Of a stretch of DNA of 64,000 bases, positions 1 through 62,011 are shown piece after piece. A program made the translations under genes and the position numbers. Numbering within the stretch: position 1 is the first letter of the stretch; every line of letters begins with the position of its first letter. Under the pieces are notes generated by a model that had not been told where the DNA came from, did not search any database, and was given only the letters and a program-made list of their open reading frames with translations. The stretch comes from Amphiscolops sp. MND2022 (lineage: Eukaryota), in the NCBI GenBank assembly GCA_964187785.1, contig OZ076409.1:14696001-14760000 (forward strand), written 5' to 3'.

Positions 1-560
1 CCGGACCACCAAATCATTGTCCCCGTCCTAGCAGAAAGGGACCTCGGGACAATCCAGGGCACAGTGGAAACCTTTCCTGCCTTTGAAAGGAAGACACAAT
101 TACTGGTGTCCCCCGCCCTAACGCAAATCACTGAGAAGAAAAGCCATGTCCAGATCACCAACCTCACCTGCCATACAATTACCCTCAACCCGAACACGAC
201 AGTGGCCACCTTCAAAATAATGACTCCCAATCAAGCAAAAAACCTACAACCAATGTCAAACGAACAATTGACACTAATAACCAAATACCCGGACGAAGCC
301 AACAACGTACTGAACCAGCTGTTCCAGGAACCCGGCACTGAAACCAACCGCAGATGGTACCCAACCCCGGAGACATGTGACGACCCGTCCAAGCTGAACC
401 GCATTGAAAGGCGGATATATGACGAAATCACTCAACTCCGTGAAAAGAGAAACTGGACCCAACAGCAGACGACCAACAGCGCAAGGAGTTCCTTGCTAAC
501 TTCAAATGGGAAAACTCAATCCTGAATGAACACGAACAACAACAAATTGAGAACCTCCTT
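1..560 (+). CDS. pol: Upstream part of the Gypsy polyprotein (PR-RT spacer), joined to pol by a 1-nt frameshift near 442-448
   Basis: ORF 64-525 reads ...IYDEITQLREK; the -1 frame then continues without stops as EKLDPTADDQQRKEFLANFKWENSILNEHEQQQIENLLVKYNNVF into ORF 561-4031. Confidence 0.75.
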
Positions 561-3500
561 GTGAAGTACAACAATGTATTCGCCAGACACCGCCTCGACA
601 TAGGCATCAATACTGACTTCAAAATCAAACTCACTCCGAAGCATGATGAACCAGTCTACGCGCAGAGCTTACCTACACCCACCAACCTCAAAGATGACTT
701 GCTCGTCGAACTAGCGTTGATGCAAGAGTACGGGATCATCACGACGTTACCGTACAGCAAGTATTCCTCACCAATATTTGCTCAGCGCAAACCCAATGGG
801 AAACTTCGCATTCTTGTAGACCTGCGCAGAATCAACCACCTCTTGAAAAATGATTACAACCAACATAATCATTTAGTCACCACCATCGCCGACGCCGCCC
901 AGCACATGGCAGGGAAGAAGTACTTCTGCAAGCTGGACTGCTCGCAGGCGTACCACTGTTTGCAGATGGCGGATGAACAATCCATACAACTCTTGGCATT
1001 TAATTTTGGAAGTCGAACCTTTGCTTATCTACGACTGGCACAAGGACTCAACCGATCCCTATCAGCATTCAACAGCACGGTGCGAGAATACGTTGATGCA
1101 CTGGTGAAAGCGGATAAATGTGCCCAATATGTCGACGACATTGGGATTGCTGCCCACACTGTAGATGAGCTACTGTCAAACATTGAAGCTGTGTTCCAAC
1201 AAATCCAAAAAGCAGGACTGAAATTGTCGATGTCAAAATGTGCGTTTGGCCACCCACAGATCAATTTCCTCGGGAGAAACATCACATCAAAGGGTGTCGC
1301 CCCACTTGAAGACAAGATCGACGACTTCCTCAAGAAGATCAAATTGCCCACAACAATCAAATCCCTCCAAAGGTACATCGGGTTTGTCCAGTTCTACAGG
1401 CAGTACATACCACGCCTAGCAGAACAACTCACCCCACTGTACAAACTACTCCAAAAAGACGCCAAATTCCAGTTGACCCAGCAGCACAAGGACTTCATCT
1501 TCGAGATCAACGAAAATCTTGCCAAAGCTGCGAAACTTTCGCTGCGTCTGCCGTTACCCGATAAACAGCTTGTTATAATGTGCGACGCCAGCGAGCATGC
1601 GGCAGGATATGTCCTCCTGATAGAGGACTATACCGAAACAAACGATGGACCACTGAAGACGTACGCCCCAGTATCATTTGGATCCCAACGATTCACGGAG
1701 GGCCAAATGTCCCTAACAATGTACGCAAAGGAATTCCTGGCGATGCATTTCGCATTCGACGAATTCGCACACATACTCTGGGGTGTCAAGAAACCAACAA
1801 TAGTAATGACGGACAATAAAGCACTGACCCGATTTTTTCAGTCTAAACGAATTCCCCCGAAGCTATGGAATTACTGCGATCAGACGCTCCAATTCGAATT
1901 CGTACTTGCCCACGTTCCGGGAACTGAGAACCCTGCTGCAGACTACCTGTCTCGTCTTGACATACGACCAGAAGAAAGAATACACCTCAAACTCAACGAC
2001 GAGATACCAGTCTTCCACGTCTTGATCGACCTGGCATCGAGAACACCCAAGCAGGACGAAGAAGAAGAAGAAGAATACATACCTGATGACCAACACACTA
2101 CCACCACCAAACAAAATGAAGCCATCAACGCCATCCTGGACCAGGTCCCCATGTGCAGCAACGAATCGAGTGGACAGTTTCTCGAGAGGATAGAAACCAT
2201 CCGTCATCAAATCACACCCATCATCACAGGGCAACATGACGAGATGACGTTCACCAGATTCAGACGAAAGCTTCATGACAACGTGGTAAACCAGGTATGC
2301 CCCAACGGGGAGTTTCAAATCATCCAGGATCAAGTCGTAAACCTTGACATCCAACGCATGATTAGAGTTTTGAACCAAAAGGAAACCCTTCCTAATCATG
2401 TGAACTTTGAAAGTCAGTTTTTCCAAAAACTAGTTAAAAACAAGAAAAGACTTGAAGTTGTGAACAACGTTTTATACAGGAATTTTTTTGATGGTACAGG
2501 TAAAATCAAGTGTAAACAAGTTGTCACTACCCCTGAAACCATTCGGAAAATCATTCAATCCCTGCACAATGACCCTCTGCAAGGTCACCCTGGCTGTAAC
2601 AAACTGCTCCATGAACTGCGTAAAAGGTACTACTCACCAAACCTCTCTGAACTGGTACTGCAATACGTCTCGAACTGCCAGGACTGCATCCGCTCAAAAC
2701 CAATCCGAAAAGCTGAAATCACACCACCACTTCAACAAATATACGACCCCTGCAACGGACCAGAAGACATACTAGAAATTGATTTAGTCGGTGAACTCCC
2801 ACCTTCCAACGGATTCACACACATCCTCACTGCATGCGACTACTTTTCGAGGTACCTCTTCGCAATACCAATCCGTAAACCAGACACAAAGTCGGTCGTG
2901 GAAGCACTCATGCAAATCTTTACGCAACACTCGTATGTACCCAAGACAATCTTAACTGATAAGGGAACGACATTCACATCTCAACTGCTCAACTCCCTGA
3001 TGGAGTCTGCCGGTATAAAAATCGAACATGCCTCTGTAAAACACGCACAAACGATTGGGATGGTTGAACGTTCCCATCAAAAACTGAAACAAATTCTCAA
3101 AATCAACAGCTCAGCTGATTCACCACAATGGCACAAATACGTCAACATGGCCGTAATGGCCCATAACACGACCTACCACCAGGCTATCCGATGCACACCC
3201 ACTGAAGTTTTCCACGGACGTGTTCCGTTCAATGCCCTTGACGTCAAATTTGGCCATCCATTAACCGAACAACGTAACACCACTGACGTCACTGGAATAC
3301 TAGATAACATGAACAAACAATTCCAACAAACACATGACAACATAATCGAAGCCTTTCACAAATACAAGAATTACTACGACCGAAAAGCGCAAGCTTCACC
3401 TCTGAAAGTAAATGATTTCACCTTTCTGCTAAACAAAAAACTGTCTCAGCAATCTGAAAAAATTCCATTCAAGGAATTCAAGTGGGAAGGCCCATACAAA

Positions 3501-4031
3501 GTGGTCAAAGTCTTGTCAAATTCAAATTACATCATACGTAAGATTGGCACTCTTCGCACCCAATGCGTTCACAGAATGAGGCTTCGCCCATTCACGCCAA
3601 ACGCACCAATCGAAGACATTCAAGACAATGCATCACAATATTTCGAAGATCCTGACGCTCTCAACGAACAGGAGTTATTTGACAATAACCTACCCGACCA
3701 TGTCCATGAACAGCCACAACAAGTAATACCTGAACAATCAAACTTCAATCATGGAATGATCTACTACGAACGGCAAAACATTGAATCTGATCAAAACATA
3801 TCCATACCTGAAAGCCAAGCTGAAACACAAGAACCACAACCGGATAATGCTAGCATGAACAATCCCGAACACCAAACAAATGATCGCCCTCCAGCGCCAT
3901 CACGACACACCATGTCTCGATACGGGCTCAGACACAACCCAAAACCTACCACGTACCCTGATTTCTTAATGCACGAATTACACGGTACGCCTTCACTGCA
4001 ACAGTTACTTCTGAAAAACAGAAACCTGTAA
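561..4031 (+). CDS. pol: Gypsy Pol: reverse transcriptase, RNase H, integrase with GPY/F module
   Basis: RT LRILVDLRRIN, KLDCSQAYH, QGL, YVDD; RNase H MCDAS, YAKEFLA, TDNKAL, ADYLSR; IN HHCC (H..QGHPG...CQDC), EIDLVG, TDKG, GMVER; WEGPYKV...VHRMRLRPF. Confidence 0.95.
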   Translation: MKYNNVFARHRLDIGINTDFKIKLTPKHDEPVYAQSLPTPTNLKDDLLVELALMQEYGIITTLPYSKYSSPIFAQRKPNGKLRILVDLRRINHLLKNDYNQHNHLVTTIADAAQHMAGKKYFCKLDCSQAYHCLQMADEQSIQLLAFNFGSRTFAYLRLAQGLNRSLSAFNSTVREYVDALVKADKCAQYVDDIGIAAHTVDELLSNIEAVFQQIQKAGLKLSMSKCAFGHPQINFLGRNITSKGVAPLEDKIDDFLKKIKLPTTIKSLQRYIGFVQFYRQYIPRLAEQLTPLYKLLQKDAKFQLTQQHKDFIFEINENLAKAAKLSLRLPLPDKQLVIMCDASEHAAGYVLLIEDYTETNDGPLKTYAPVSFGSQRFTEGQMSLTMYAKEFLAMHFAFDEFAHILWGVKKPTIVMTDNKALTRFFQSKRIPPKLWNYCDQTLQFEFVLAHVPGTENPAADYLSRLDIRPEERIHLKLNDEIPVFHVLIDLASRTPKQDEEEEEEYIPDDQHTTTTKQNEAINAILDQVPMCSNESSGQFLERIETIRHQITPIITGQHDEMTFTRFRRKLHDNVVNQVCPNGEFQIIQDQVVNLDIQRMIRVLNQKETLPNHVNFESQFFQKLVKNKKRLEVVNNVLYRNFFDGTGKIKCKQVVTTPETIRKIIQSLHNDPLQGHPGCNKLLHELRKRYYSPNLSELVLQYVSNCQDCIRSKPIRKAEITPPLQQIYDPCNGPEDILEIDLVGELPPSNGFTHILTACDYFSRYLFAIPIRKPDTKSVVEALMQIFTQHSYVPKTILTDKGTTFTSQLLNSLMESAGIKIEHASVKHAQTIGMVERSHQKLKQILKINSSADSPQWHKYVNMAVMAHNTTYHQAIRCTPTEVFHGRVPFNALDVKFGHPLTEQRNTTDVTGILDNMNKQFQQTHDNIIEAFHKYKNYYDRKAQASPLKVNDFTFLLNKKLSQQSEKIPFKEFKWEGPYKVVKVLSNSNYIIRKIGTLRTQCVHRMRLRPFTPNAPIEDIQDNASQYFEDPDALNEQELFDNNLPDHVHEQPQQVIPEQSNFNHGMIYYERQNIESDQNISIPESQAETQEPQPDNASMNNPEHQTNDRPPAPSRHTMSRYGLRHNPKPTTYPDFLMHELHGTPSLQQLLLKNRNL

Positions 4032-5855
4032 AACACCCATCCCTCATTGCATTTCTCAAACCAACGACTGCCAACAGTAGTCATAAACAGTCTCACTCCT
4101 TGACCGTAAAAGTAATTGTTTTACAATTACGCCCCTGTATACCAGTAATCAACAAGCAGTATTGAAAATTCCGGACAACCTAGTACACAATCCAATTAAT
4201 ACGATTAGATGACCATCCACTTCCGCCAACCCTGTTTGAACTGTCTAATTACTTAGCATCAACTACTACGTAAGAAGCAAACGAACGGTAAGGCCACGAC
4301 TGCAAACGCCAATCATCCCAACACTCGCGGCCCGGAAGCACACGTAGCGCGCAAAAGTGTGAACGATAATTTATTCAATTCGCACCAAAACTACCACATC
4401 AACAATCGAAACGAAACACTTCGCTTAGAAAACCGTCGAAACACAACTAACGAAACGTGAACGGAAACAACGTTCCCTACAAGCGCAAACAAACTAACAG
4501 TGGCGATCTGCTGCCTGGCAAACGTTAGGACAACACAACCAACATTCCACCCATTTCGACTTAAACCCATAGTGCTGGCTGTGTGGGTGCGTCGTCGAAA
4601 AGCGCGCTTGTGTGGTTGGTCGTCACCATACAGATGAAGGTTGCTCTTTAGCAACTGGATTCAGTGTTAGTTTTGTATAGGTGGTTCCGACGGGAATTCA
4701 CCTTTTCCAATGAACTGAACATCAAAAACAAAAATAAAAAAAACCAACCATAGACGATAACACAACGCCGGTAAGAACAAGAACTTACAAAATTCAGAAA
4801 ACAATGAATGCCCGACCCCTTAAAAGTAACCAGATATGCGAAGGCTTCGCCTCGCTTGGGAAAAGATTCAGGAGTACGCGGCCCCAACCTCTGCTTAGTA
4901 TTAAAATCCACACACACCCATAGTTCTCAGTCTAACAACTTCCTACCACCGAAGTTAACATAATGTAAGAACTCGCGATCTTGACGACACACATCACGTA
5001 TGATGACGTCCCAGGACACACATCAACGATGATGACGTCGCGTACACAGACCGCTACATGTAATATATTGAAACACACTAAAATACATGCAAAAATGTCC
5101 CTAAGACTTATAACATGAATATTACATGCACAAAAAAAAGTCATGCATCAAACCAAGGATACACTCCTTGAGCTCTCCTTCATCGAAAGGAACTAGCTAC
5201 TCAGTCACGTACCTTACAGTGCGGCGCTAAGGACTGGAAGGCCAAGGTCTGAATGTCTCGTTACCATTCTCGAGCCCTCACTAACAACTTACATGAAAAA
5301 CCTGGCTCTCGAGTACCATGCAGAGCACAGTTTGACGAGTGAACAATTGTTTATGTTAATGGTTACCGCAGTGACAACCATAACCAACATGAACTTCCTC
5401 AAAAAATTCTCTGTAGACGCCGTAACAATTAGAGCGTAAGTCCACTCGAAACCATAGCGAAGTATGGGTTACCACATACACACACTTAAGAAAGACAAAG
5501 CCAGTCCAGCATCATGCATAAACGTACATACAAACAACAAAAAAAAGCAAGCATAAGAGCAATGCAACTTTAGGTTTCACGTCCTACAAAAAAAATGGAG
5601 TTGTCACACGCAAAACAAGCGAAAAACCTCTTGTGACGTTCTAACTGTCCAGCAGTCCTAAGGAAAAACAAAGAAGAGTACTATGATGGTTGAAACCATC
5701 TATTTAAATTACTAGAAAGTGCAAGACCTACTCAGGCCAAAATAAAATGCAGCATACAAAGCAAATCACAATATCAAGACTCAATATATAAACAAAAAGC
5801 TGAGAACACAAAGAAATATGGAAAGTCTGATTACTAAAACAAGTCCTTCTGCCAA

Positions 5856-6824
5856 CTAATACTCTGTAGAACGGCTGGAACCGCCCTCGTTACTGCTTTT
5901 TTCTAGTGAAAAAGCCCGCCTGCTGGCTTGTACAGGTTCAGTCTCAAAGGTAGCCAGAATGCGTTTCCCTTTCTTGTCCGGCTTCCCACAGGGCCTCTGT
6001 CCGTGATTGCCCCCTGACGTCCTACTGACTGCTTTGCGCTTCGGAGCTGACTCACTCGGACCTGCCGATGTGACCACGACCTCGGATTGCAATTTCGGCG
6101 CTTGAGCTGCTGAACGCCTTGACTTGACAGGACTCCGACGGGGAGCAGTTGGACTCGATTCCATTGTCCGCAACTGATTACAAACAGCAGACACATAATC
6201 GTCAATGACAGGGCGAGTAGGTAGTCCGCCAGTCGTCTCCAGTACAGTGACACAGCGCCCAAGTGATTCGTCAACCCCCCTCTTAACCAATTGGTCCCAG
6301 GGGATAGCTCTGCCTTCATTGGTTAACCGCGAAACCTTCATGTCTGTAGTGCTGCAGTGTCTAACAAAACCAATCATCGAGCGTCGAGAATGCCCGCCGA
6401 AACCACTCGACATCCAGCTTCGAATAAGGTTCAAACTTGACAGCATGATACCGTCATCGAGGGCTGTGTCTCCTACATCCTGAAAATCAGCAGCATACGA
6501 ATCATGGAGCATTCCCACAAAAAGAATCTCCACAATGCCCCAGAATTCTTGGCACCGGTCCCACGAAGGATATGACAGCCACAAAGACATGGCATCGTCA
6601 ATAACTGGCACCACCGAAGCATTGGACTCCCATCGATGCTTGAAGTAGTTGACTACCTCGCGATACTGCTGTAAGATGATGGCACCTTGGTCTCCTCTGC
6701 ATAGATCTCCAAAGCTGAGGACAGAAAGCGTACCCACAAGGATGTCCGTCAGCCGATCCATTGACACCGACTGAATAGCATAAGGATCCAGCGGCAACAA
6801 GCTGAGGTGCTTAACCCACCCTTG
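5856..6824 (-). CDS. Antisense cargo gene exon 7, 3' part to the stop codon
   Basis: In frame with 7379-7689 once the MITE and one TSD copy are removed (IGDYD|QGWVKHL); ends in a basic, Ser-rich tail ...RSTEY*. Confidence 0.78.
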   Translation of the reverse strand, partial: QGWVKHLSLLPLDPYAIQSVSMDRLTDILVGTLSVLSFGDLCRGDQGAIILQQYREVVNYFKHRWESNASVVPVIDDAMSLWLSYPSWDRCQEFWGIVEILFVGMLHDSYAADFQDVGDTALDDGIMLSSLNLIRSWMSSGFGGHSRRSMIGFVRHCSTTDMKVSRLTNEGRAIPWDQLVKRGVDESLGRCVTVLETTGGLPTRPVIDDYVSAVCNQLRTMESSPTAPRRSPVKSRRSAAQAPKLQSEVVVTSAGPSESAPKRKAVSRTSGGNHGQRPCGKPDKKGKRILATFETEPVQASRRAFSLEKSSNEGGSSRSTEY

Positions 6825-6832
6825 GTCATAAT

Positions 6833-7378
6833 TAGGGGGAACCAAATGCTATAAATGCTATTAATGCTATAAATGCTATTTTCTCTTACATTTTGAACTT
6901 AATTGCTATTTTGTCTGTCGCCTGAAAACCAATATTATTTCACACGATAAATAAACATACACTTACTTACTACTTATTTTGTTGGACACCTTGAATGCAT
7001 AAAGCAAATAAATATAACACGCCTACTCATCTTTGTTGTATTTTAAGATCAACTATGCCTAAAATACCGCTTACTAAGCATGAGAAATCTTCAATTTATG
7101 CTCAAAAATATCCATCGGAATTCCGTGTTTTACCAAACGGAGAATTAATTTGTAAATTATGCGACAAGCCCGTTAACTCGGACAAAAATTGGCTTTGTTA
7201 ATTCATCTGAATAATTAACAATATGCATCCAAGTAATTGTTTTTTCAATAGTTTTTGGGCGAGTAAAATACAAAAAAATCAATTTTAAGTGCTATTTTTA
7301 GTGCTATTTTAAAGTTTTTTGAGTGCTATTTAATAGCGCTATAAAAACGTTTGTTAGTGCTATTGTTGGTCCCCCCTA
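6833..7378 (+). mobile_element. Non-autonomous hAT element (deletion derivative) retaining a transposase N-terminal stub
   Basis: TIRs TAGGGGGAACCAA / TTGGTCCCCCCTA; 8-bp TSD GTCATAAT (6825-6832, 7379-7386); subterminal TGCTAT repeats; stub MPKIPLTKHEK...ELICKLCDKPV. Confidence 0.92.
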
Positions 7379-7689
7379 GTCATAATCGCCAATACAAGAC
7401 TCGCACACAGTCCTGAGGAAATTCTCCACTTCTTTATAAAAGAAAGGCTTCTGGCTGACCACGTCGAAGCGGAAATACTGGCCGAACAGCACTTGAAATC
7501 GGGCCTTGTCAACAGGCTTACTTTCGCCCAGTCGCAACTTCAACACGGCGAGGACTTCAAAATCAGGTGGTAACGATGAGGGTTCGACGACCAGACACAA
7601 TAACTCTCGAAGGAAAGCAGCCAACTCCCGCTCGAACCACAAGTTCCGATCTCGCCCAGCAGAACACAAGCGAGGACACTTTGCAACAA
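7379..7689 (-). CDS. Antisense cargo gene exon 7, 5' part (interrupted by the hAT MITE)
   Basis: Acceptor GTGTTTCAG|, phase 1; reads VVAKCPRLC...CESCIGDYD up to the MITE TSD. Confidence 0.75.
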
Positions 7690-7837
7690 CTGAAACACAC
7701 AGGCGAATCACAAACAAAATGTCGAAAAACTACACACCCTAACAACTCAGACGTAGATAACACCCAAATCAACAATTACAACAAAACTAGTACCGACACA
7801 CCCGTACACAAGAAACACTCAAAACTCTTATACTGAC

Positions 7838-8048
7838 CTGTCTCTGCCAGAAATTTCAAAACTGCAAATCGCGGCCTCGACAAAGCATCGCTGAAGACTT
7901 GAGTCTCCATACTGGCTATACTCCGCGTTTCGGACACAGTATTTGACCGGTGAACACCGAAGTAGGCACCGAGGTCGTCCCATCGCTCCACAAGTTCGGT
8001 GCACAGTGCCGACAACTCCTGGAAGCGCGCAGCACCACCACGGACGAA
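7838..8048 (-). CDS. Antisense cargo gene exon 6 (hAT RW-helix-like segment)
   Basis: Acceptor TTGTTTTAG|TTC, donor G|GTCAGT; RFQELSALCTELVERWDDLGAYF. Confidence 0.78.
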
Positions 8049-8167
8049 CTAAAACAAAATTAGCACCGGGTTAGAACAAAGCAGACCACGACCACACATT
8101 ACCACACATACTCACACCAGTCCCCGAAAAAAGAAAAAAATGCGCTAACAAACTTAAAATCAATTAC

Positions 8168-8656
8168 CTCTCGAAGCCTTGGCATATTGTCAAACGACGA
8201 ACCACCGATGACGGCGGCTAAGCGGAACCGGAAATACTCCAACACGCAGAAAGGTTCCAGTCCACTCAACTCTCGCAGAAACGTGCGCCGCAGCAAATCC
8301 TTCAGCCAGTCCACATCGAGACGACGAGTAACCAAAGGTATGGCTGGGTGCGCGATGCTAGCTAACGCACGCCCAAGACGCAGATTCTCTCCCACACTCA
8401 CAGCACACAGACCCGCATGAGACTCCACACAGGCCAGAACAGAGACAACGATCTTGAGTAGTGAGGGTTCCCACTCACCACCCCCAGGAATAGCAGCTAG
8501 CACAACCATCTTGACTGTCAGAGCGTCAAAAATGTGGCAATCCACCCGCTTCAACGAACCATCAGTGCGGACGTGCAGACCAAACCGCGCCCCAGCAGAG
8601 AGTAGATCGCTCAGTTTCTCCATAACAAATGGATACAGGCCGTACAACACAAGACT
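8168..8656 (-). CDS. Antisense cargo gene exon 5
   Basis: Acceptor TTGTTGTAG|AGT, donor GAG|GTAATT, phase 0/0; same frame as ORF 8099-8650. Confidence 0.78.
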
Positions 8657-8788
8657 CTACAACAAACATACAACAGTGACACTTCTCAGCAAGTACTGCA
8701 AACGAAAACAGTAAGCAACTACAAACACGAACTAGCAGACAAGAACCAATATTCACGAACAAAAAAAGATGAACAAAACATGTATTAC

Positions 8789-9351
8789 TTGACATTTCGG
8801 GTATGATAGCACCCTCTCACTGAAAACCAGCTCGCCCCGCATGCTACTGGACCACACTTCCATGGACCGCATAACGCTTGAAAAGTCCCTCAGTTCAACA
8901 AAGTTATTGATGAAGCAGCATAGCCAGAGGTATGAAGCACTGGACTCCGACAACTCGGGTTTCGAACCAGCTGCCTCCTCTTCTAATTCAACCGCAATCC
9001 GCTCTTCAACAGTCAGCTTCACCTCTGACTCCAGAATGACAGGTGGCTCTGACACTCTGGCTGCCCGAATTCTCCGATCCTCGTCCAATGACACGGGCCT
9101 ACAGGACTTGTCCAATAGAGGCCTATTGGACATGATGCGGAAGCGCTGCTCAAGACGAGTGTGCTCTCGCCCTTTCCAATGATCCCACAAGTTGTGTAGC
9201 CCACGTCCGGCAATGCTTAAATCAACGCGGCACAGACGACACCTTGCGAACCCGTCCAACACACGTTTGTTTCGGGGGAAACCAACGAAGGTCCCCACGA
9301 CCCCAGAAACGAAGAATGAGGGTTTCAACGTTTTGATAGCACGCTTCCGTC
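8789..9351 (-). CDS. Antisense cargo gene exon 4, BED-like C2H2 zinc finger
   Basis: Acceptor GTGTTAGCAG|, donor CAA|GTAATA; ARCRLCRVDLSIAGRGLHNLWDHWKGREH. Confidence 0.78.
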
Positions 9352-9511
9352 CTGCTAACACACAACACAAATCACATAGCACCACTGTCCAGCCAAAAAC
9401 TTCCAAAAAAAACGTGTTTGTTCTTAATCAGTAGTAGTACGTTATATACATCTCTTATTTCTTTACCACCTAAAACTAAAACCCCTCACGTGATCTTTTG
9501 AGAGTTCTTAC

Positions 9512-9880
9512 CAGGCTTTGATGTGGAGGCAACAGCAGACGAAGTCCCCCCAGAAGGAACGCCGCTTTTTTCTCCAAACTCAGACGGCACATCAGATTCC
9601 ACTGCCGCACGACGATCGTCCACACTAGAGATGCTCCCAGCTACGGAGCGTGGTAGAGAAGAAGTCTCACCACCACGGGGAACGACAGGAGCTTGACCCA
9701 GTTCTCGCAACGCTTCCTTCAATTTGTCCAGGAATTCCTCGACAGCGAGAGCACCCACTGTCCCTAGCCGGCCCAAACTAGACTCGATTGCAGCCTTCAC
9801 CCACTGCTGAATTTCCCGTTCCACACGATGAAACAATTCAGTGAATTGCCCCACAATGACATCAGCTCGAACGTTGGCAT
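9512..9880 (-). CDS. Antisense cargo gene exon 3 (helical segment plus Ser/Gly-rich linker)
   Basis: Acceptor TACTTTGCAG|, donor G|GTAAGA; same frame as ORF 9486-9854. Confidence 0.7.
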
Positions 9881-10059
9881 CTGCAAAGTAACCCTTAGTT
9901 CACAGCACCTACTTTGGACTCAACGACTGAAGGCATCTATCACCGCCTGGTTATAGAACAGCAACCGTATACTGCATGCATTGGTATCGAACAACAAAAG
10001 AACCAAAAGACCCCCCCCAGCAGATAACCTAGCTTCACAGTAACCGTGAATTCACCTAC

Positions 10060-10281
10060 CAAGTTGCGATGTCAGAAAGGCATCCAGTCGACGAAGGATG
10101 GTCGCCGCCTCCGTCTCAGAACCCTCAGCAGTCCCAGCGACTATCGAAGCACGAAAGCGACGTAAATAACTGACCACGTCGGACATGTTGACATCAGCTA
10201 CAAACACGAGAACGCCCTAATTAAAATGCTACGCCTGACACTCCCTAACATTACGGGACTCAAACTTGAAAGTATGCAAAC
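10060..10281 (-). CDS. Antisense cargo gene exon 2 (two in-frame TAG codons in this copy)
   Basis: Acceptor TTCTTTCAG|, donor G|GTAGGT; reads GLHTFKFESRNVRECQA*HFN*GVLVFVADVNMSDVVSYLRRFRASI...AFLTSQL; phase 1 at both ends. Confidence 0.5.
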
Positions 10282-10359
10282 CTGAAAGAAAGTCTAAACT
10301 CTCCCTTACGCTTTAGACATACCACTGATAGTAGTACAATATACGAAGTGAGCACTTAC

Positions 10360-10780
10360 CAAATTCCTGGGAGAGAACGACATCCAATAAATCGCCTGAA
10401 CCAGCGACATTAGCAGAAGATACACGAGCCGCAAACTGACAGCAGTAACTAGTCTCCAGCAAAAATCCTGATAACTCCAGATAGCCTCCACTTCCACCTA
10501 GCTGAGCCCCCTCTCCGGCCATCTGATTCTCCACTTCAGCGACTAACTCAGCTAATCCGGGACCAAAGGACTGACCTGCCTCATCATCAGACATATTGGA
10601 TAACGCTGGGAGCAAAGGAAAAAACTGATACTCTTCGGGGAAATAATAATCGGCGACGAAGACACGACTGCAAAAGCTCATTCTTCCATTTATTGTTGTT
10701 ATAGACTGATCACCTATTCCAATATACAATGGATACCTGACCTCCTTATCAAACAGTTTTACTCGAGTAAAACTGGACAT
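10360..10780 (-). CDS. Antisense cargo gene of the Gypsy element, exon 1 (MSSFTRVKLF...VVLSQEF)
   Basis: ATG at 10780; donor G|GTAAGT at 10359, phase 1. Confidence 0.6.
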
Positions 10781-11402
10781 TCAAGGAACTATATTTTGGA
10801 CCTACTTCCATCAAATATCAAATGCTAATTACAAGAAGCAGAAAGAAAGCGGTCGTATTTCCCTGCCAAAAAAGATTAATTCCCCTCACAACCTTATCAG
10901 TACATTCGATACCCGAAAAATACAGGACTAACAGTGAAAAAAAAACCAAACAAGGACATATTTTCATCATTGTGGAAGAATGAGCAAAGCCAACGGTTGA
11001 CAAACGAAGGTGAATACTCTCAAATTAAAGCGGGATCAACTTTCAATTCAAACAGTAACTGACTCAAGTGACTTTCACTATAGCAACTCAACAAATCAAT
11101 CAACTGCCGATGATCGATGAAAAGTTGCTTAAACAAACATTACACTCAATGCGCACTACACGGATGACGTGGCTGTCAAACCGTTTCTATAAATAGACTT
11201 CAACTTCCGACTACCTACTATTTGCCTGCCTCACCTTGTCCATTCACGCTTCCGAAAGTTTCCAGAAGCTACATTGCCACCCACGCGTTTCTCTATACCT
11301 TGCATGCCACTTCAGCCGCTGTTCAATACTCCACTCAAACACCTGCTACCTCTCAACTCGACCGCTCACCTTACCCATTACCCCTACAGCTTGCTCTCTC
11401 TC

Positions 11403-11416
11403 AAAAAGGGGGGGAA
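11403..11416 (+). other. Polypurine tract of the Gypsy element
   Basis: AAAAAGGGGGGGAA immediately before the TG that starts the LTR. Confidence 0.85.
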
Positions 11417-12541
11417 TGTCATGCCCGCCAAGCATGAAGGAATTAAACGAACTCTAAAACATTATTTTTATACATCAAACTCCCTAAAATACAGATCATC
11501 ATGAAAATACATTGCAGTAATTTATTCCCCGAACAACACAGTTGAAAGGATAACAACTGGAAGTAACAGTCATCAATACTGAATTCATTCATGTTATTGT
11601 GCATCGTTTAGAAATCAAGACTGAAATATTCAGTCACAACAAGTGATTCCCATAAATACGACTGAAACAATCAGTCATCAGCTATCGTGATAGTTTGTCA
11701 TTTAATCATTCTTCATCCATTTTTTATATTACATGTAAAGTATTACCAGAATATTCAATCAATCATAACAACAACATTTCGTTCATTCATATTAGCAATA
11801 TGTACAATGCCTTTTAGTAATTATCCTCCAAACGATATTTGAATCAGTCACCATGATGATAAGGATACACGGTAGTAAAGCCTCAGTTTAAGAGGTAATT
11901 GAGACAATTGCGTGCTAAAATGACTGGTGCTTGCGGTCATACTAGATCAAACATGAATACTTAAACGCCGATTATCACCCGTCACGACTGTAGCCACCAG
12001 TTGTCAAGTGCAATTAAATAGCAATTAGTAAATCGAATGTCATTGGCTAAATGGAAAGGTGCTAACACACCTTTATAGTTACACAATCGGGTAAAACCGA
12101 ACTCACTCACGAGTTGTAACCATTGATATAACCAGTTGCCTACTACCTTGCTTACGAGTTATCAATCCTTATTTTAACATTAAAACATTTCAATTCAACT
12201 TAAAACTTCCAGACTTTTCATGGTAATTACCAGATCTCAAAGTAGTCAAAATAGACAAGTAAAAACTGAAAATATGGATACATCAAGCGATAACGAAAGT
12301 GAAGCCAGTTTCCCTGAACTTTTATCCAGAGACCAAATGGTAGACCTTGACTCTGACGACGTTTTAACTAGACGTCAAAATGGTAACAGTTATAACATTG
12401 ACCAACGATTTAATGAGATAAATAGACAAATCGGAGACCTTACCAATATCGTCCTTACACTGACCAATCAGTTTGCCTCCGTTAATGGAGAAGGGAACAG
12501 ACTGAATCCAGCAACTACAAGTACTGACGGTCGTTCCGACA
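11417..12541 (+). repeat. 3' LTR (1125 bp)
   Basis: Starts TGTCATG after the PPT and ends CCGACA (TGTC/GACA terminal inverted repeat); followed by unrelated HINE-type repeat DNA. Confidence 0.8.
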
Positions 12542-12558
12542 ACTGGCACTTGAGATAG
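12220..12558 (+). CDS. LTR-encoded ORF, probably the Gag N-terminus (107 codons inside the LTR, reading out into the flank)
   Basis: MVITRSQ... acidic stretch then coiled-coil-like IDQRFNEINRQIGDLTNIVLTLT; open through the LTR end; same layout as the solo LTR at 42354-43782. Confidence 0.6.
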   Translation: MVITRSQSSQNRQVKTENMDTSSDNESEASFPELLSRDQMVDLDSDDVLTRRQNGNSYNIDQRFNEINRQIGDLTNIVLTLTNQFASVNGEGNRLNPATTSTDGRSDNWHLR

Positions 12559-13136
12559 AGGTTAATTAGGCTTTTTTGAGGTCCCCTTCTACATTTTTCG
12601 GCACTATGCGACTTATCGGGGACCAAAAAAAATTGAAAAAAACTTCGAAAAAAATGGGCTTTTTTCAATTTTTCCTCATGCGGGTACTGTAGAAGAGTAT
12701 ACTTGACACTTTGAAGTCTTTTTGCTATTTTTAAGCCTCAGATATGACGCCGACTTGGATCGGTCCCGGTTTGTTATACTTTTAAAACAGTTAAATGATC
12801 GGCCAGTTGCATAGTCTGCCAATTGATTTAGCACTTTACCATTGTTCAGCTTATGTAAAGGATGTTGGTATGGATTGTAGCCGAACAGAATTAAAGAAGA
12901 ATAGTTTTGTAACAGAATAAGATTGAATTCTCAATTGTAATTGGCCAAACGACTTGACAAAGAAGTTTCAATTTCGTAGCAAATATATGACCATCAAACG
13001 CAGTGAGAAGAAATGAAAGTTAGTACATGTAGATTCGGTTATAATCTCAAGCGGCTATAATCCTTTTCGGCCAAAATCACGACTACCGTAACGGATGGCA
13101 TTGATTATTCGTTACGTAATTCATTACGTAATTCAG

Positions 13137-13328
13137 GTGTATGGGGAGTTGCGCAACACGGGGCAGGAGTTGCAGTTCGTGCTGGACCCTGCCCAGAGTG
13201 GCATCGTGAGTCTGGACGGGGGTCCTCTGGCATACACCTACAGACTGAGTCATATCAAACTGCGCTACGGACCCGAGGAGGCCAAGGGCTCTGAGCACTC
13301 TATAGACGGGTACTACTTCGAAGCAGAA
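13137..13328 (+). CDS. CA10: Carbonic anhydrase-related protein (CA10/CA11-like), internal exon
   Basis: CAG|GTG...GAA|GTACGT; LRNTGQ, GGPLAYTYRLSHIKLRYG, GSEHSIDG..FEAE match the alpha-CA fold. Confidence 0.9.
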
Positions 13329-14421
13329 GTACGTATTATCTCCCTACCTCGAAAAAAGTAACCCCCCCACCCACCCACACACACACACTTTTCTAGATGA
13401 TATTGTTTTAGCAATTAATTGGCACTCAATTGAGTTTCCAATGAATCATTTCACGTAATTTCAAAAAAATAATCTCCTTTTTTAATAGATTTATTTGAAG
13501 AAATATTAAACGATATAGCCAATGTTAAATAGCCTTCATGCTGAATTTTTTTCTTCGAAAGTGTGGGGGAAAAGGAAAAAGAGCCGAAAAAAATGTATAT
13601 AATTCTCGAAAATATTTTGCAAGACGTCTGGCAAGATCTCGCAAGACAATGCATTATTCTTGCAAACGGTCTTGCATGACTCTTGCAAGATTCTTGCAAG
13701 AAATGAATTGAAACTGCGAGAGATATGCAAGGAATGAAACTTTCAAGATAATTGCATGCTTCGACTGAGAATTCTGAAACTTTTCGTTGTGTTTTCTCCA
13801 TTGAACATCGCCGAATGATCAACTCCGCTAGTGCCTATTCTCACTATCAGAAGAGCCATTCCAGACTTTTTTATTCAGCTTGCAATTTCTTCCAAATAAG
13901 GGCTTTCTCTTGTTTCTGCTGACTTAAGTCTTGCTGAAAAAAAAAGAAACCCGGTCAAGAAATAAAAGAAAAAGAAACCGATTGACGAAAACAATGCTGA
14001 AAATCTATTCTATATGTTCAACTCAGCACTAAGCGTTTATCAAACTCCATATTAATCATTTTACATTTTTTTTCAAAACTGAATCCAACTTTCGTATTTT
14101 CTACGGAAAGATCTGAAGTTTCCATCAAACTTTTTCATTTTAATCAACCGTCTGAAAAATACGCATATTTTTGCACACAAGAACAGTGTTCTTTATTCAA
14201 TTTGCCCTTATAATATAGCGACAATGAACTACGTAGTTCGCCTCTTTTAGAATATTTGTGGTGCAAAATAAAAAGCAAAGGAAGCTTCTATCGTCTAGAC
14301 TGTATCAAATTTGCATATCTTTTGTGTACATTGAACGTCTGAAGGTCGTCGTCATTGGGTTTTTCTTTCTGTGAGACCCAGAAATTGTATTGTTTGTCAT
14401 TTTCTACTTTGTTGGTTGTAG

Positions 14422-14784: not shown

Positions 14785-15252
14785 CAAACGACAGAACTGG
14801 CGCGCGGGGACACTTTCGCATTTTTTAACATCCATTATTGCAAAACATAAAAAAATTCAAGGGGGGATCATTTGGTGGCAAAAAAATCGGGAAAAAGTCT
14901 CACAATGCCGAAAAGAACTGAAAGGGGGGACCTTTTGGGATTTTTCAACATCCATTTTGTCGCAAAACATCAAAAAATTGAAGGGGGGATCATTTGGTGG
15001 CAAAAAAATTGGGAAAAAGTCTCACAATGCCGGAAAAAGCTGAAAGGGGGACCCTTTAGTCTCTACCGGTATTATATGTTACGCGGAAAAAGAGGAAAAA
15101 CCTTTTTGGTTCAGTTCGCTACGCCAAATTATTCAATTTGGGACCATAAAATTTTGTAGAACTTTCAAGAACTATTTTGGTCAGTTCGTGTGGATTGAAA
15201 AAAAGAGTCACTATAATAGTCGCGTTTCACTTCATGAAGCGCCGACTAAAAA
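14785..15252 (-). mobile_element. Helentron-like non-autonomous element (HINE), partial
   Basis: Family end ATAGTCGCGTTTCACTTCATGAAGCGCCGACTAAAAA and internal AAAGGGGGACCCTTT subrepeats. Confidence 0.65.
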
Positions 15253-15584: not shown

Positions 15585-15809
15585 GAAAATGACAACGACA
15601 CGAACAACGAGTTCCAGAAGCTGTTCCACGGGCTGAACAAAGTCAGCTACAAGGGGTTGAAAAAAGACGTGGAGGGGATCGACGTTTCTGCCCTGTTGCC
15701 GGACACCTACAATTATATCACCTACCAGGGCAGTCTCACGGCACCCCCTTGTTCAGAGGGAGTTACCTGGATACTGTACAACAGACCCATCAATATTCCC
15801 AAGTGGCAG
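15585..15809 (+). CDS. CA10: CA10/CA11-like exon
   Basis: CTAG|GAA...CAG|GTTGGC; LLPDTYNYITYQGSLTAPPCSEGVTWILYNRPINI. Confidence 0.92.
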
Positions 15810-17796: not shown

Positions 17797-17962
17797 AAGA
17801 ACCAAAAACATTCTTGGTCCCAATCAACATTCGTAGTGATCTTTTTCAAAATTGTTCGGCTTTCTCAAGTCCTTAAAGATCTTTAAGGACTTGAGAAAGC
17901 CGAACAATTTTGAAAAAGATCACTGCGAATGTTGATTGGGACCAAGAATGTTTTTGATTCTT
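17797..17962. repeat. Spacerless palindrome with 83-bp arms
   Basis: Centre 17879/17880 (AAAGA|TCTTT); two mismatched pairs; inner 45-bp arms perfect. Confidence 0.95.
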
Positions 17963-25363: not shown

Positions 25364-26015
25364 GAAGAGTTTACATGTCGAAATGACGTCATCGACTGAT
25401 ATTCATTCAGTCGTCGTTTGTCGTCGAATGTTGAATAATCGTGCGCTGCCCGATAAATATCAATGCCATCTCAAGTGCCTTCGTCTATCTTAGATTTGAT
25501 CGGATCGGATCGGATCGGCTCCCATCCGATTCGCCTCTTCCATCGCAATCCCTCGAATACAATTAATTACGTGCAGTCCTTCTGAAAAGCTATCACAGTT
25601 CCCAAACATAATTATCAGTGTTAAGAATTTTGTTCAATGCAACCAATGCAGTTAATCAAGTATTGATTTAATTCCGATTATTTCGAGTTTATAAATTTTG
25701 TTATTCGAATTATTTTTCAATTTTAATTTTCAACTTTAAAATTCAATTATTCAAAACATTAACTTTCAATTTACCCGAGTTTATGGTGTTCGTGTTTATG
25801 AAAATTTTTTGTAGAAAAAAAATCATAAAATGTTTAACTACGTTAAACTTTCATCAAAATATCTTGACTCGATATAAAAATATTGGATATGCGGTAAAAA
25901 AGTGAAAACGTTTTATAAATACACACTCTCAATTAAACGAAATTTTGAGTGAAAGCAACAAGCAATCAAAAATGTAACCTACCGTACCGTAATCATTGAA
26001 TTACGGTTAATTACA

Positions 26016-26454
26016 AACAAGCCGGGAACGGCAAAAGTCGGCGCAATACCTAATGCTCAAAAATAGCACGAGGACTTCAAGGTGTCTAGTATTCTCTTCT
26101 ACAGTACGCGAAAAACCTAAAAAGTGGCGCTAAAAGGGGGGACTTTGTCGGATTTTCTAACCTCCATTCTGTTGCAAAAAATTGAAGGGGTGACTCTTTG
26201 GAGACACTAATCATTCTCCGAAAAAAAGTCTCATAATGACAAAAAACTGAAACGTGGATCTTTTAGTCTCGCCCGGTATTGTATGTTACGCTGAAAAAAA
26301 AACAACTTTTATAGTTCAGCTCCCTGGGCAAAACGGTCCAATTTGGCCTCTTAAAATTTCGCAAAACTTTGTAGAACAATTTTGGTCAGTTCATGTGGAT
26401 TGAAAAAAGTCACTATTAAGGTCGCGTTTCACTTTATGAAGCGCCGACTAAAAA
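26016..26454 (-). mobile_element. HINE-like element
   Basis: AACAAGCCGGGAACGGCAAAAGTCGGCGC ... GAAGCGCCGACTAAAAA. Confidence 0.7.
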
Positions 26455-26489
26455 TACTTGCCTTCCTGAACCATTTATTATCAAATTCC

Positions 26490-26882
26490 CCTTTCAGTTT
26501 TTCGGCATTGTGAGACTTTTTTTCCAAAATTTTTTTCTCTCCAGAGGGTCCCCCTTCAGTTTCTTTGATATTTTACAACAGAATGGGTGTTTAAAAATCC
26601 CAAAGGGTCCCCCTTTTAGTTTTTTGGCATTGTGAGGCTTTTCGAAAATTTGTTTTTTCGCCAAAGGGTCCCCCTTCAACTGCGACAAAGATGTTGACAA
26701 TTTTAGAAGTGTCCCCCCCCTTTTAGCGCGCCAGGGGTTCGCGTTAGCGGGGCCCGGCGCTCCACTCGGTCCACTTTTTTTGGTTTTTCGATTTTCGAGT
26801 ACTGTGAATTGACACTTGGAAGTCGTTTTGCTATTTTTGAGCCTTGGATATGGCGCCGACTTGGGCCGGTCCCGGCTTGTTT
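26490..26882 (+). mobile_element. HINE-like element, partial
   Basis: Ends GGATATGGCGCCGACTTGGGCCGGTCCCGGCTTGTT. Confidence 0.65.
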
Positions 26883-28110
26883 TTCCATTATCCTTAATTG
26901 GATCTCTTCGAGCGACGAGTTTCGATAGCTCTTTTCACGTCCAGATTGGATTGTTACTTGCTCTTAAACATAAAAGTTGTTATTCTACTTTCCAATCAAA
27001 TAAACATTTCTTTCTAAAGAATATGCACCCTAACCTATACCTTGTAAACATCTTGCTCTCCAAAGGTTAAGCATGTTCTTAACATGGTCTCGAAAGTTTA
27101 CTGACTCTACGTGTACTTAATGGAATGTACAGTAGTGACATTATTGAAAGCAACACAAGGCAAATCTCCAAATCAAATATCTCTAAAACGGCAGCGATTT
27201 TTGAAAAAACAATGGAAGTGAGAGTTTCTTAAATTTTCATCTAGTTCACAAATTTATTTCTGAAATTATGCGATGAAAATTGTGAAAGCTACGATAGGCC
27301 ATTTTAAGCCAAATTTAGAATCTTCTGAGGTTCTTCTCACTTTTGGAGTTTTCGTTCGAAATCATCCTTTTTCCGCATGCTTTTTTGCTTTTAAAAATAT
27401 CACTACTGCATACCTACTTTATGGCTACGTAGTACAGCGCACGCTATTAAAAAGGAAAGGTTGATTACATTCAACCGGCAATTTCGAAGGGGTACCATTA
27501 TGATTATAACATATTTTTTATAAAAAGGAAACCTAGCTGATCCTCCAAAACATTCGACAAGCTAACATGTATCCTCATTCAAATCGTGGCACCTGCTACA
27601 AATTTCTTCAACCCTGAAACTTTAATTTATTTTGACATCAAAGGCTAATCGGTGTTTAATCGGTTTTCAAAAAGGTGATTTTGTTAATGGAAGTAAGATC
27701 TCTCCTTTGTAACCCACTTCAAAAAAATGGTGTAATTGAGTCAGATTTGTAAATCTATGGCTCATCAAACGTAGATTTCAGATCCTCGTTTTTGCAACCT
27801 CTAAGAACTCTTAAAATTCATTGTTTGTTAAGTTATTTCAGTCAGATGAACGTCAAGGTATCACAGGAAAGGTGAAACAACTATGACAAAATTTTGCTGA
27901 ATTTTGCTTACAAAAGTCATTTGCAAAGCAGTGGGATGTTTTCTGCTCTAAACTGGTATCTCCCATCGTCAGTCAAGTTGGTAAAGTTTCATTGCGCGAC
28001 AAGGTTACCCAAGTGAAGGATTTTTATTCTATTCTAATCAACAAAACGGGTCGCAAAATTCAGAAGCGCTTACTACTCTACTTGAGAATCCCGTGAAATT
28101 TTGTAAGCAC

Positions 28111-28420
28111 ATGAATAAAATGCAGGCTCTTTTCTGATAAAATAGAAGAATCAGGGACCGTCTCTGATTCTTCTGTTTAATCAGAAAAGAGCCTGCATTT
28201 TATTCATTTTCCAAGTTTCTATAAAATTCAGGGAAGATTTTCGGACATGCTGAGACGTTTTTAAAGATTTTCTAAGATGCAGGGAAATTCTACAAAATTT
28301 TTCAAGCAGAGGCCCTGCATGAAAAATTTTGTACAATTTCCCTGCATCTTAGAAAATCTTAAAAAACGTCTCAGCATGTCGGAAAATCTTCCCTGAATTT
28401 CATAGAAACTTGGAAAATGA
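28111..28420. repeat. Two abutting imperfect palindromes (28111-28207 and 28204-28420)
   Basis: ATGAATAAAATGCAGGCTCTTTTCTGAT...ATCAGAAAAGAGCCTGCATTTTATTCAT, then TCATTTTCCAAGTTTCTAT...ATAGAAACTTGGAAAATGA. Confidence 0.85.
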
Positions 28421-31679: not shown

Positions 31680-32053
31680 CATATATTTCGAGGCTACTAC
31701 ATCAAAAATCAAATACAAAGTACAGCAAATCTAACATCCAAAGAGGAAGAAAAACCACTGAATACCCTCAAATATTTAGAGACTAGTATAATGTCAAACC
31801 AAAAAACAAAAAGCATCATTGATTGAACAGCCATTCAGCATGAAAACCTGAAAATCTGAGTATTCCTTTAGATCTTATTTTCGTCCTAAAATTTTAGATA
31901 TTCGTTTTTTTGACTTATTCCTCCTTCTACTTTCATAGTCATGCCTGCAGGCCTTCCAATTAAAGAAACAGTGAATTCCAACGGGGAGCAGGAATAACGT
32001 TATTCGTTTAGACGTCATTACCGGAACACTTTTCAGATGTTATTCCTTTGGAC

Positions 32054-32372
32054 GTTATTCGCGCCCCTAGTTGTTCGCGCCCCTAGTTATTCGCCCCCTA
32101 GTTATTCGCGCCCCTAGTTATTTGCGCCCCTAGTTATTCGCGCCCCTAGTTATTCGCGCCCCTAGTTATTCGCGCCCCTAGTTGTTCGCGCCCCTAGTTA
32201 TTCGCGCCCCAAGTTATTCGCGCCCCAAGTTATTCGCGCCCCTAGTTATTCGCGCCCCTAGTTATTTGCGCCCCTAGTTATTCGCGCCCCTAGTTATTCG
32301 CGCCCCTAGTTATTCGCGCCCCTAGTTATTCGCGCCCCTAGTTATTCGCGCCCTTAGTTATTGGCGCCCCTA
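32054..32372. repeat. Minisatellite (TTATTCGCGCCCCTAG) x ~20
   Basis: Direct 16-bp tandem units with few substitutions and no unique spacers. Confidence 0.95.
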
Positions 32373-33517
32373 AATTTCATCTGAGACATGAGCAATAACT
32401 GAAAATCGTTCAATCGAATTTTTGACATGATATCCATCCTTGCAAGGACCATGACAAACCATGGTTATCTTGCCAAGATCTTGCCATGATCTTGGCAAGC
32501 GTTCCATGTATCATGATTAACCATGATCTTGACAAGGGTACCATGGTTAACCATGATTTAGCAAGATTAACCATGATCATGGCAAGCGATCCATGGTTTC
32601 GAACACTGGTATACATTGTAGCACAAAGGAGTAAATGGAGTTACTTTTTCAAACTAATCAACTTCTGAGTAGCCACTTAGCTTTTTGAACCATGAAATCA
32701 GTTTTTCAAGTCAAGCAAGAACAGAGAAACTCAATTGGATATGAATACAATAAAGTAGCTTTGTAGCATAGTTACCCAATATGAATAGCGAAGTATACGA
32801 TTACCGCTATAAGAAAAAATATACGCTAGTGACTTGAATTGGATTCTTTACTCGAGTTTTTTAACGTAGTGTTGTCTGCAAACATTTTTATTTGACTTTC
32901 ATCAGTACAATCAGCCAAATCATTGATGTAAAAAAGAAAGGAGATAGGTCCAGAAAAAGACATTTAGGTCACACGACTAGGTATTTTTCGTAGGCTAGAC
33001 CACTTTCATATACAAAAAATAGACCGATAATGATTGCTTAATTAGCTTTGTAAATATCGGGAAAAGGTTTTCAGACTCCAATATTTCTCAAATTGTTCAA
33101 TAACTTTCGATGATTCAGTTTGTCAAATGACTCTTTCGAATCAGTGGAACAATATTGACCTTTCATTTTCAGGTCAAAATGGCCCCTCGTAAATTCATTC
33201 ACTTCCTTAATATTATTAATATTTGACATTTTCGATATGAACATTTTCAAAAATGAGCGCAACAAAAAACTTTTTTCGCATGGAATATCAGCATTCTTCT
33301 ATTACCATTTTTTGTTCTTCATCATTGAATTAAGTATACTAATGGGCATTAAGAGTTTTCAGAATCTATCATTTCGCTTTTTTTCACAGAGGTATCACTT
33401 TGCCTGTTCTGAACGCCACAGGATGAGTTCGTTCTGGCATGCATTTGGCAAGCAAAGTTTCTATTTTCGCTGAACATAATTTCAAATTTTCATTTTTGAT
33501 TTCATCGTGTCCGTTAC

Positions 33518-39810: not shown

Positions 39811-40029
39811 TGTGTCAATTTTGTTGATTATCTTTGAAAGCGTTCCATTGATGGTGTTTTTTATAAAAAAGAATGCGGTTGACCAAAACTTTTCAAAGTT
39901 TTATGATTAACAAGCACGCGTGCTTGTTAATCATAAAACTTTGAAAAGTTTTGGTCAACCGCAATCTTTTTCAAAAAACAAAACACCATCGATAGAACGC
40001 TTTCAAAGATAATCAACAAAATTAACACA
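39811..40029. repeat. Spacerless palindrome (head-to-head copies of a dispersed repeat)
   Basis: Centre CAAGCACG|CGTGCTTG at 39918/39919; inner 45-bp arms perfect, outer arms diverged. Confidence 0.92.
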
Positions 40030-60536: not shown

Positions 60537-61060
60537 AACAAGACGGGAACGTCCCAAGTCGGCGCCATATCTTAGGCTCAAAAATATTCAAGGAACAACT
60601 ATTGGAAAAATTTGGAAAAAAAATTTTTTCAAAAAAAAATTTTTTGATTTTTTTTCGAAAAAAAGTATTTTTTAGGTCGCACAATGCCGAAAAACTCAAA
60701 AAGAGGCCATTCAGGCTCATTCAACGTTTTCTACAAACCGAAAACTTCAAAAAAATTCATGGGGGTACCCTTTGATAAATTTCGAAAATTTTCGAAAAAA
60801 GTCGCATAGTGCCGAAAAAAAACCCAAAGGGGGGACCCTTTGGTCTCACCTGTACTTTTGGAAGCATTAAAAAATTTATGGTTTAATGCGAGAATCGAAC
60901 CCACGCTCTCCGGCTGGGTCGAAGATGGAAGATGAACAAATATGAAAGATGAACAAAAATTGTAAGAAAAGTGGACCACTCAGTGAGATTGTCAACTGGA
61001 AAAAAAACTACTCACTGTAGGAGTCGGGCTTTTTTCCTTAAGGGAAAAGGCGCCGACTAA
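60537..61060 (-). mobile_element. HINE-like element
   Basis: AACAAGACGGGAACGTCCCAAGTCGGCGCC ... GGCGCCGACTAA. Confidence 0.7.
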
Positions 61061-62011
61061 CAATAGAAGTGAAACTTCCAAACTAGCACAATTGGATGGC
61101 TGACATATATTTGTGATATTCAGTACGTCACATGTTAACAGTCTATTGGAGAAACAATCCGGGAACGGCATAAGTGCGAACGTATCTCAATCCGTCAATG
61201 AATAGTTTTTTTAGTAAAATTCTCAAATATCATAATGTCAAAAGAACCATAAGAGAGACCTCTTGGGCTTCGAGCCTTTCGAACAAAAATGTCAAAAACC
61301 AAAAGGGAACCCTTTCGAACGTAAAAAAAATTTGAGCCAATTTTAGAAATTTTCAACTTTTATTGTTGAAACATCGACCGATTGGAAAAAAAAACACGAA
61401 AAGCCACTATAATAATTGCATTTCATTCCAAACAGCCAGTTATAAAAATCAAAAAGTAGCACTGCCGAAAACCCTATTTAGCTAAAAATTTAAAATAATC
61501 GAAGATACTTTGGATGCTCTGAAGATACTAGGCTGAACGTCTGTTGAAACATTGAGAGCGAGTACTTGATCCACAGAAAATGCAAAAACAAGAACAACGA
61601 ATTAAAATTGAAGTCAACTATTTGTTGCTACCATGTCGCAAAATAATACTACACGATATGGCGTTTCGCATTCGTATTTAAATGCAGGCGAGGCTCTCGG
61701 CGTACGAATATTTAACACTCGTTCAATTTATCTCAGTGAACTCGGCGAATATTTTTGAGATCTTTCGCTTCATCATACAAAGCGCTGCTACGAGAATTGA
61801 ATAGCTAACGACTTCGACTACGTAGTAAAAGTAATAATAACAGCTTGGTTCAATTTTTGACCATAAAATCAATCTCCTCAAGCAATTGCAGTCAGACATG
61901 TACCGAGAAACACTAATACCAACAAAAATTTTGGTATAAAGTTCATTAGGCCTTTGCTCCAAGACCAGGACTACAGTTTTTTAACGAGCGAAAAAAGCGT
62001 TTATTCTCAAA

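Follow-up and report, generated by a model that had tools for sequence, protein, structure and literature searches.

Antisense extra open reading frames (ORFs) in retrotransposons and transposases domesticated by their hosts are both already known. The former include those of plant Gypsy elements with long terminal repeats (LTRs), namely Retand (TRP28/PF04195), Grande and RIRE2, which are found in most copies and have been proposed to be DNA-binding regulators; 97% of Retand clusters encode TRP28, whose role is given as unresolved and which is reported only in flowering plants (PMC11963269, PMC7264820). The latter include the ZBED family, in which a hAT transposase lost catalysis and was retained for its binding to DNA (PMC10368747). 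Here, we describe an antisense gene, hereafter the cargo gene, which would work like both; it is carried by a Gypsy LTR retrotransposon of Amphiscolops sp. MND2022 and was found in a stretch of 64,000 nucleotides of contig OZ076409.1 (positions 14,696,001 to 14,760,000, assembly GCA_964187785.1), the whole of which is called the window. The explanation that we favour, at about even odds (roughly 0.5), is that this accessory gene derives from a whole hAT transposase, has lost the predicted active site and now encodes a nuclear protein that would bind DNA and regulate the element carrying it.

The cargo gene has the same place and orientation as the plant antisense ORFs, from which it differs by its length (about 1,100 aa), its six predicted introns and its transposase architecture (BED plus RNase H); no match to TRP28 (PF04195) was obtained in domain and profile searches of the cargo. 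With a subgroup of hAT transposases and with Hermes it shares the order and roughly the spacing of the finger, the pre-core helices, the predicted RNase H core, the D at the C/DxxH position and the W-L-YF helix, but it lacks the histidine, a full DDE triad, RW and terminal inverted repeats (TIRs), no ERxFS was found in it, and it is longer at both ends, by about 245 residues at the N-terminus and, at the C-terminus, by a conserved additional module and a basic tail. We regard it as a member of neither the active hAT family nor the TRP28 family. Unlike in the ZBED case, the domesticator here would be another mobile element, and the gene is multi-copy and moves with that element. VANC of VANDAL, a Mutator-like element (MULE), is also an element-borne accessory gene and acts on short motifs in the non-coding DNA of its own element (PMC13317346), an action that is proposed for the cargo; VANC, however, sits in DNA transposons, and the likeness is one of proposed role, no sequence or fold relation having been seen. 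ORF3 of bdelloid LTR retrotransposons likewise follows pol in an LTR element of animals and is an additional gene particular to its family, but those genes are env-like or encode GDSL or DEDDy enzymes, and the word “transposase” does not occur in the portion of the text available (PMC5408684).

Transposase domestication is normally an act of the host; in this instance, one mobile element appears to have domesticated an element of another class and to have spread the product in hundreds of copies. A whole hAT transposase domesticated by a retrotransposon would be the new part: no retrotransposon with a domesticated whole hAT or an inactive transposase was found by title or abstract start in a literature whose coverage leaves out most subscription journals and the Repbase reports. 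As for the role of antisense extra ORFs in LTR retrotransposons, a recognisable finger, a candidate target motif and several diverged types make the question directly testable.

An Antisense Gene Carried by a Gypsy Family

The element enclosing the cargo gene, which lies between pol and the 3′ LTR, is 15.6 kb long and has all the hallmarks of Gypsy: LTRs, target site duplication (TSD), primer binding site (PBS), polypurine tract, and the order reverse transcriptase (RT), RNase H, integrase. Its front end, with the 5′ LTR, the PBS and gag, falls outside the window, upstream, in the adjacent stretch L021 (L numbers designate loci). A search of the 1.07-Gb assembly with exon 4 gave at least 150 copies, these being the best 150 of 5,478 candidates. 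Among 20 copies inspected over at least 20 kb each, an LTR pair flanks the gene in 16 and pol is present in 17, the remaining three being rearranged pieces without pol (L044, L046 and L058; exons 2–7 are still open in the first two, and a recognisable exon 1 is absent from these pieces). In 12 more diverged copies, pol adjoins the cargo gene every time and in the expected orientation in 11. All these copies were collected via the cargo gene, so that “most copies” counts no Gypsy relatives devoid of it. The antisense gene is cargo of an LTR retrotransposon family, and it is under purifying selection, in line with the proposal, made in a preliminary description of the window, that a class I element had captured and kept it. 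Over exons 4–7, the ratio of nonsynonymous to synonymous substitutions (dN/dS) in the seven measurable pairs is 0.11, 0.06, 0.03, 0.20, 0.15, 0.07 and 0.48, that is, 0.03–0.20 in six of the seven; 11 of 18 pairs are saturated at synonymous sites.

The gene is predicted to be split into seven exons on the minus strand, the last of them spanning 7689-5856 (Table 1). The preliminary description had placed the protein at 5856-9351, a feature that is real and holds exons 4–7 only, three more exons being found at 9512-10594; the peptides it quoted do lie on the minus strand in the order given. Counted from the ATG at 10594, the coding sequence has 1,094 codons; a poorly conserved alternative ATG at 10780 would raise this to 1,156, and neither value is the 1184 aa first announced. 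Across 18 aligned copies, the most diverged of which share only about 37–40% amino acid identity in the core exons, there are few departures from the GT-AG ends or from the lengths of exons 4–6 (563, 489 and about 211 nt), and the reading frames are maintained as well. The exon 5/exon 6 junction is further supported by the relatives P0067 and P0108, since the two exons are continuous and intron-free in both; splicing is thus predicted from conserved signals and intron-free relatives. None of the 150 scored in the genome matches P0067 at more than 34%, so the cargo family probably extends to other species.

Within exon 7, the possibility that 6833-7378 is an intron was ruled out: this segment is a miniature inverted-repeat transposable element (MITE) with TIRs and a TSD, private to the window copy and missing from the 17 other aligned copies. 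It has 62 matches in the genome, many of them 100% identical; it is very young, and its copies across the genome form a series of internal deletions whose ends are identical, with a tandem array on C5. A short frame inside it, which includes a C-x2-C motif, is reminiscent of the start of another hAT transposase.

Several observations concern the element itself. The gag frame starts within the LTR and crosses the PBS (window 12184-12541 and L021); in the window copy, a stop splits gag and a frame change near 444-522 splits pol. At the start of the L026 element, the 5′ LTR occurs twice, 1.8 kb apart, with the same 10 flanking bases, and L136 is an internally duplicated copy with five spacer motifs and two exons 6.

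Table 1. Features of the retrotransposon and its cargo gene (window positions).
Feature	Positions	Strand	Evidence
Gypsy pol (RT, RNase H, integrase)	444..4031	+	Pfam RVT_1, RT_RNaseH, rve, Integrase_H2C2
Conserved non-coding block, predicted RNA hairpins	4572..4720	+	76–100% identity across subfamilies
25-bp motif present twice, 29-bp spacing (direct repeat D7); candidate binding site	4986..5039	+	
Exon 7, 3′ part: helical region, then the W..YP segment (resembling hATC by eye), a conserved additional helical module, the basic disordered tail and the stop	5856..6832	-	
hAT-type MITE, 546 bp, within exon 7	6833..7378	.	TIRs starting TAGGGGG, 8-bp TSD
Exon 7, 5′ part: helical region aligned with hAT insertion domain	7379..7689	-	
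Exon 6: W-x-x-L-x-x-YF helix and RP.FA.L helix	7838..8048	-	
Exon 5: predicted RNase H-like core, degenerate catalytic positions, DxxW replacing C/DxxH	8168..8656	-	AlphaFold, fold searches, residue counts
Exon 4: BED-like C2H2 finger and helical region preceding the core; best-conserved exon	8789..9351	-	zf-BED E 0.03 (below cut-off); hhalign P 2.5e-5 against finger of hAT subgroup panel; 66–90% identity across subfamilies
Exon 3, non-hAT N-terminal module: conserved amphipathic helices and low-complexity linker	9512..9880	-	
Exon 2, non-hAT N-terminal module	10060..10197	-	
Exon 1 (coding part), with the acidic N-terminus and a CCQF segment that is conserved	10360..10594	-	ATG aligned in 11/18 copies, donor kept in 15/18
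Polypurine tract	11403..11416	+	
3′ LTR (TG...CA)	11417..12541	+	98.8% identity with 5′ LTR; 5-bp TSD

A Probable but Remote hAT Ancestry

The cargo protein had been proposed to be a repurposed hAT transposase, and its landmarks do come in hAT order and spacing. The C-x2-C...H-x5-H finger is of the BED type found at the N-terminus of hAT transposases, with four ligands conserved in 33/39, 38/43, 34/42 and 35/45 de-duplicated relatives; it matches the finger of the hAT panel described below and reaches Pfam zf-BED below the cut-off. After the finger and the helical region, AlphaFold applied to the L048 copy predicts an RNase H topology for the core (predicted local distance difference test, pLDDT, 60–87 over the block), for which the top Foldseek matches are an integrase, the ISCth4 transposase and Hermes, the latter with an E of 3.8e-3 over 361 columns. 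We also compared the cargo by hhalign with 61 hAT sequences of the TRWLS...W..L..YF subgroup (L160-L239 and L279-L290), a panel selected on that motif, and obtained a collinear match with a probability of 93.3%, a P of 2.6e-7, 404 columns and a score of 69.5. In the controls, this score fell to 47.4 with the motif masked, to 15.1 with the sequence reversed and to 21.8 at most in 20 block shuffles, and no panel of Tip100, Ac, DUF659, MULE or integrase sequences exceeded 25.9. The W-x-x-L-x-x-YF part of the expected helix is kept (W 19/22, L 21/23, F 21/23), on the understanding that the panel was chosen on this very motif; the RW that should precede it is lost (R 2/21, W 0/22). The C-terminal FW had to be abandoned as a landmark, the W of QEFWGIV being private to the window copy (0/8 other copies), and the conserved W and P (18/20 and 18/19) stand upstream, in SLWLSYP.

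Some results limit the case for a hAT origin. Once the finger and the selection motif are removed, the hAT profile signal drops to background; away from the finger and the W-L-YF helix, the rest of the sequence gives no hAT match that is significant by itself; the fold match of the core is that of a generic RNase H; and the C-terminal dimerisation domain (Dimer_Tnp_hAT), present in seven of eight tested members of the hAT panel, was not detected in profile comparisons of the cargo. Panels of Ac-like, Tip100-like, DUF659, MULE and integrase sequences yielded the finger only, or background, in hidden Markov model and profile tests, and profile comparisons with the shallow A7 alignment gave the finger only (P about 0.001). 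Taking both sides together, we consider hAT ancestry well supported but remote, and find it highly probable that the cargo protein is hAT-derived and inactive.

Other searches were less telling. Nothing under an E of 0.1 was found for the cargo among PDB sequences, and no relative in viral contigs; the finger alignment retrieved one near-identical unnamed protein and no named relative. Exon 7 had no named relative among longer proteins; Atlas placed it with unnamed clusters at 0.89–0.90 (low recognition), and its model is of low confidence (pLDDT 52) with no Foldseek match under an E of 1, which has no bearing on its fold. A strict motif pattern returned two apparent chance matches in the genome and one non-hAT match in viral contigs, and DUF4371 had no match anywhere in the genome, hence this search was uninformative. 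The genome also has transposase frames of free hATs that belong to the matching subgroup (L279 and L284-L290), L279 having a G-L-x-P-F-x-M segment in common with the start of exon 5, as judged by eye and with weak pairwise support.

Loss of the Predicted Active Site

The preliminary description had failed to find intact catalytic motifs, and the relatives tell the same story. The histidine of C/DxxH, which Hermes has in its active site (PMC7780238), is absent in 35/35 copies, where it is usually W, T or S, as against H in 31/31 sequences of the hAT panel; the first position of this motif is D in 37 of 65 relatives. The first catalytic column has a D in 0/35 copies, with an Asp two residues further on in 20/35; at the second, 52 of 71 relatives have D or E; the third, placed by eye, is E in 10/34. 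No copy is acidic at all three columns, even allowing for a two-residue shift, and ERxFS was not found in the cargo relatives. Judging from these residues, the protein has lost the predicted hAT active site and is likely to be catalytically inactive. No inverted pair bounds the cargo gene in the window or in L022, and the sole TIR/TSD set is that of the MITE. An env-like gene was also considered and rejected, given the absence of any such match and the finger plus RNase H architecture.

Conserved Spacer Blocks and Possible Cargo Exchange

The spacer between pol and the cargo gene contains no conserved ORF, and no Rfam match was found in 4000-12600; it does contain two non-coding blocks that are conserved where introns are not. 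The hairpins predicted in the block at 4572-4720 show compensatory changes in 5 of 32 predicted pairs, with a z of -2.1 and many G-U pairs. The tandem motif at 4986-5039 has 28 invariant columns in 16 copies and was found in 29 of 304 loci, every one of which is an element locus.

Cargo and integrase distances are correlated (Spearman 0.73 for 25 elements, the pairs not being independent), and the two trees agree in their main groups without agreeing fully. Between L034 and L038, DNA identity is 93–99% in pol and 67–77% in the cargo, and synonymous divergence (dS) is 2.6 for the cargo and 0.02 for the integrase; a cargo diverging so much faster than gag-pol suggests that old cargo types have been exchanged between young backbones. 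In the pairs L034 and L038, and L022 and L028, the divergence of cargo, LTR and gag-pol differs strongly along the element, a pattern suggestive of mosaic elements.

A Putative Regulator and Its Rivals

How such a gene could have arisen may be outlined as follows. An ancestral hAT would have landed back to front between pol and the 3′ LTR; since the genomic RNA corresponds to the other strand, this orientation would allow introns to persist through reverse transcription. Catalysis would have decayed, with the finger and scaffold retained, and an acidic N-terminal module and a basic tail, both read from the sequence, would have been added. The protein would be made from its own antisense transcript, its finger would bind short repeats, for example the tandem motif in the spacer, and its acidic module would recruit transcription or chromatin machinery in a VANC-like or ZBED-like action. 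In Hermes, the BED domain binds short subterminal repeats of the element itself, and transposases that were domesticated mostly retain DNA binding, not catalysis (PMC10368747). Granted that the protein is hAT-derived and inactive, we lean slightly towards a nuclear DNA-binding regulator that binds the motifs of its element and keeps it transcribed. A more specific version, which we put forward tentatively and at somewhat less than an even chance, is that a retrotransposon lineage domesticated a complete hAT transposase as a sequence-specific anti-silencing or transactivating factor, with diverged cargo types swapped between near-identical gag-pol backbones, in a VANC-like arms race fought with a former DDE enzyme.

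Other functions can be imagined for the same protein. By attaching to motifs in host DNA or to chromatin, it might hold the integrase complex at safe targets, which would suit a conserved finger on a large scaffold and the role in retrotransposition suggested for plant antisense ORFs (PMC7264820); we consider this unlikely, the target duplications of the copies having no obvious common sequence and the cargo changing far faster than the integrase (L034 against L038, above), unlike a tight binding partner. The basic tail, together with a hairpin block that is conserved across subfamilies and shows compensatory changes, could instead point to a Rev-like factor binding genomic RNA for export or packaging, although BED fingers are known as DNA binders, hairpin support is modest and Gag could be the partner of this RNA; we would be rather surprised if this were the main role. 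Even less probable is a decoy or dominant-negative subunit directed at free hAT transposases or at a host factor, which would protect the element or manipulate host defence without binding the element's own DNA: the genome does contain free hATs from the matching subgroup as well as MITEs that are very young, and fast divergence with apparent swapping of cargo types would fit, but similarity to the resident hATs is too remote for mixed oligomers to be likely, and a MITE did insert in the window copy.

The origin of the gene can also be questioned. Atlas leads for the cargo are Mutator/IS256/ISL3 (0.82), Foldseek ranks ISCth4 above Hermes and the core fold matches are generic, all of which would accommodate another C/DxxH transposase (MULE or IS256-like) or a protein of the host that combines an RNase H fold with a BED-like finger. 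The highest scores of MULE panels, however, are 23.3 in local and 7.2 in global comparison, where the hAT subgroup attains 69.5 and 49.9, three MULE panels of 20 sequences give a probability below 1%, and the arrangement of landmarks is that of hAT, so such an origin appears quite improbable. As to an ordinary nested or still active hAT, or a neutral passenger, single acidic residues do survive at aligned columns in some subfamilies; yet neither the intact DDE nor the flanking TIRs of a nested hAT were found, the histidine is missing throughout, purifying selection is strong and cargo distances follow those of the integrase. We rejected an active nested hAT on these grounds, and this whole set of explanations is largely refuted.

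Other Features of the Window and Genome

Beyond the element, exon-like frames at 13092-13361 and 15593-15800 are reminiscent of a carbonic anhydrase-related gene. A dispersed repeat family, probably MITE-like, occurs in both orientations at 14807-15252, 26008-26884, 40200-41355 and 60537-63542. Also in the window are a tandem array of 16-bp units and three long palindromes that are nearly perfect (32031-32434; 17797-17962, 28204-28420 and 39849-39988). Elsewhere in the genome, MULE transposase frames form a tandem array with a spacing of about 3.5 kb (G000:C10:485821-504262).
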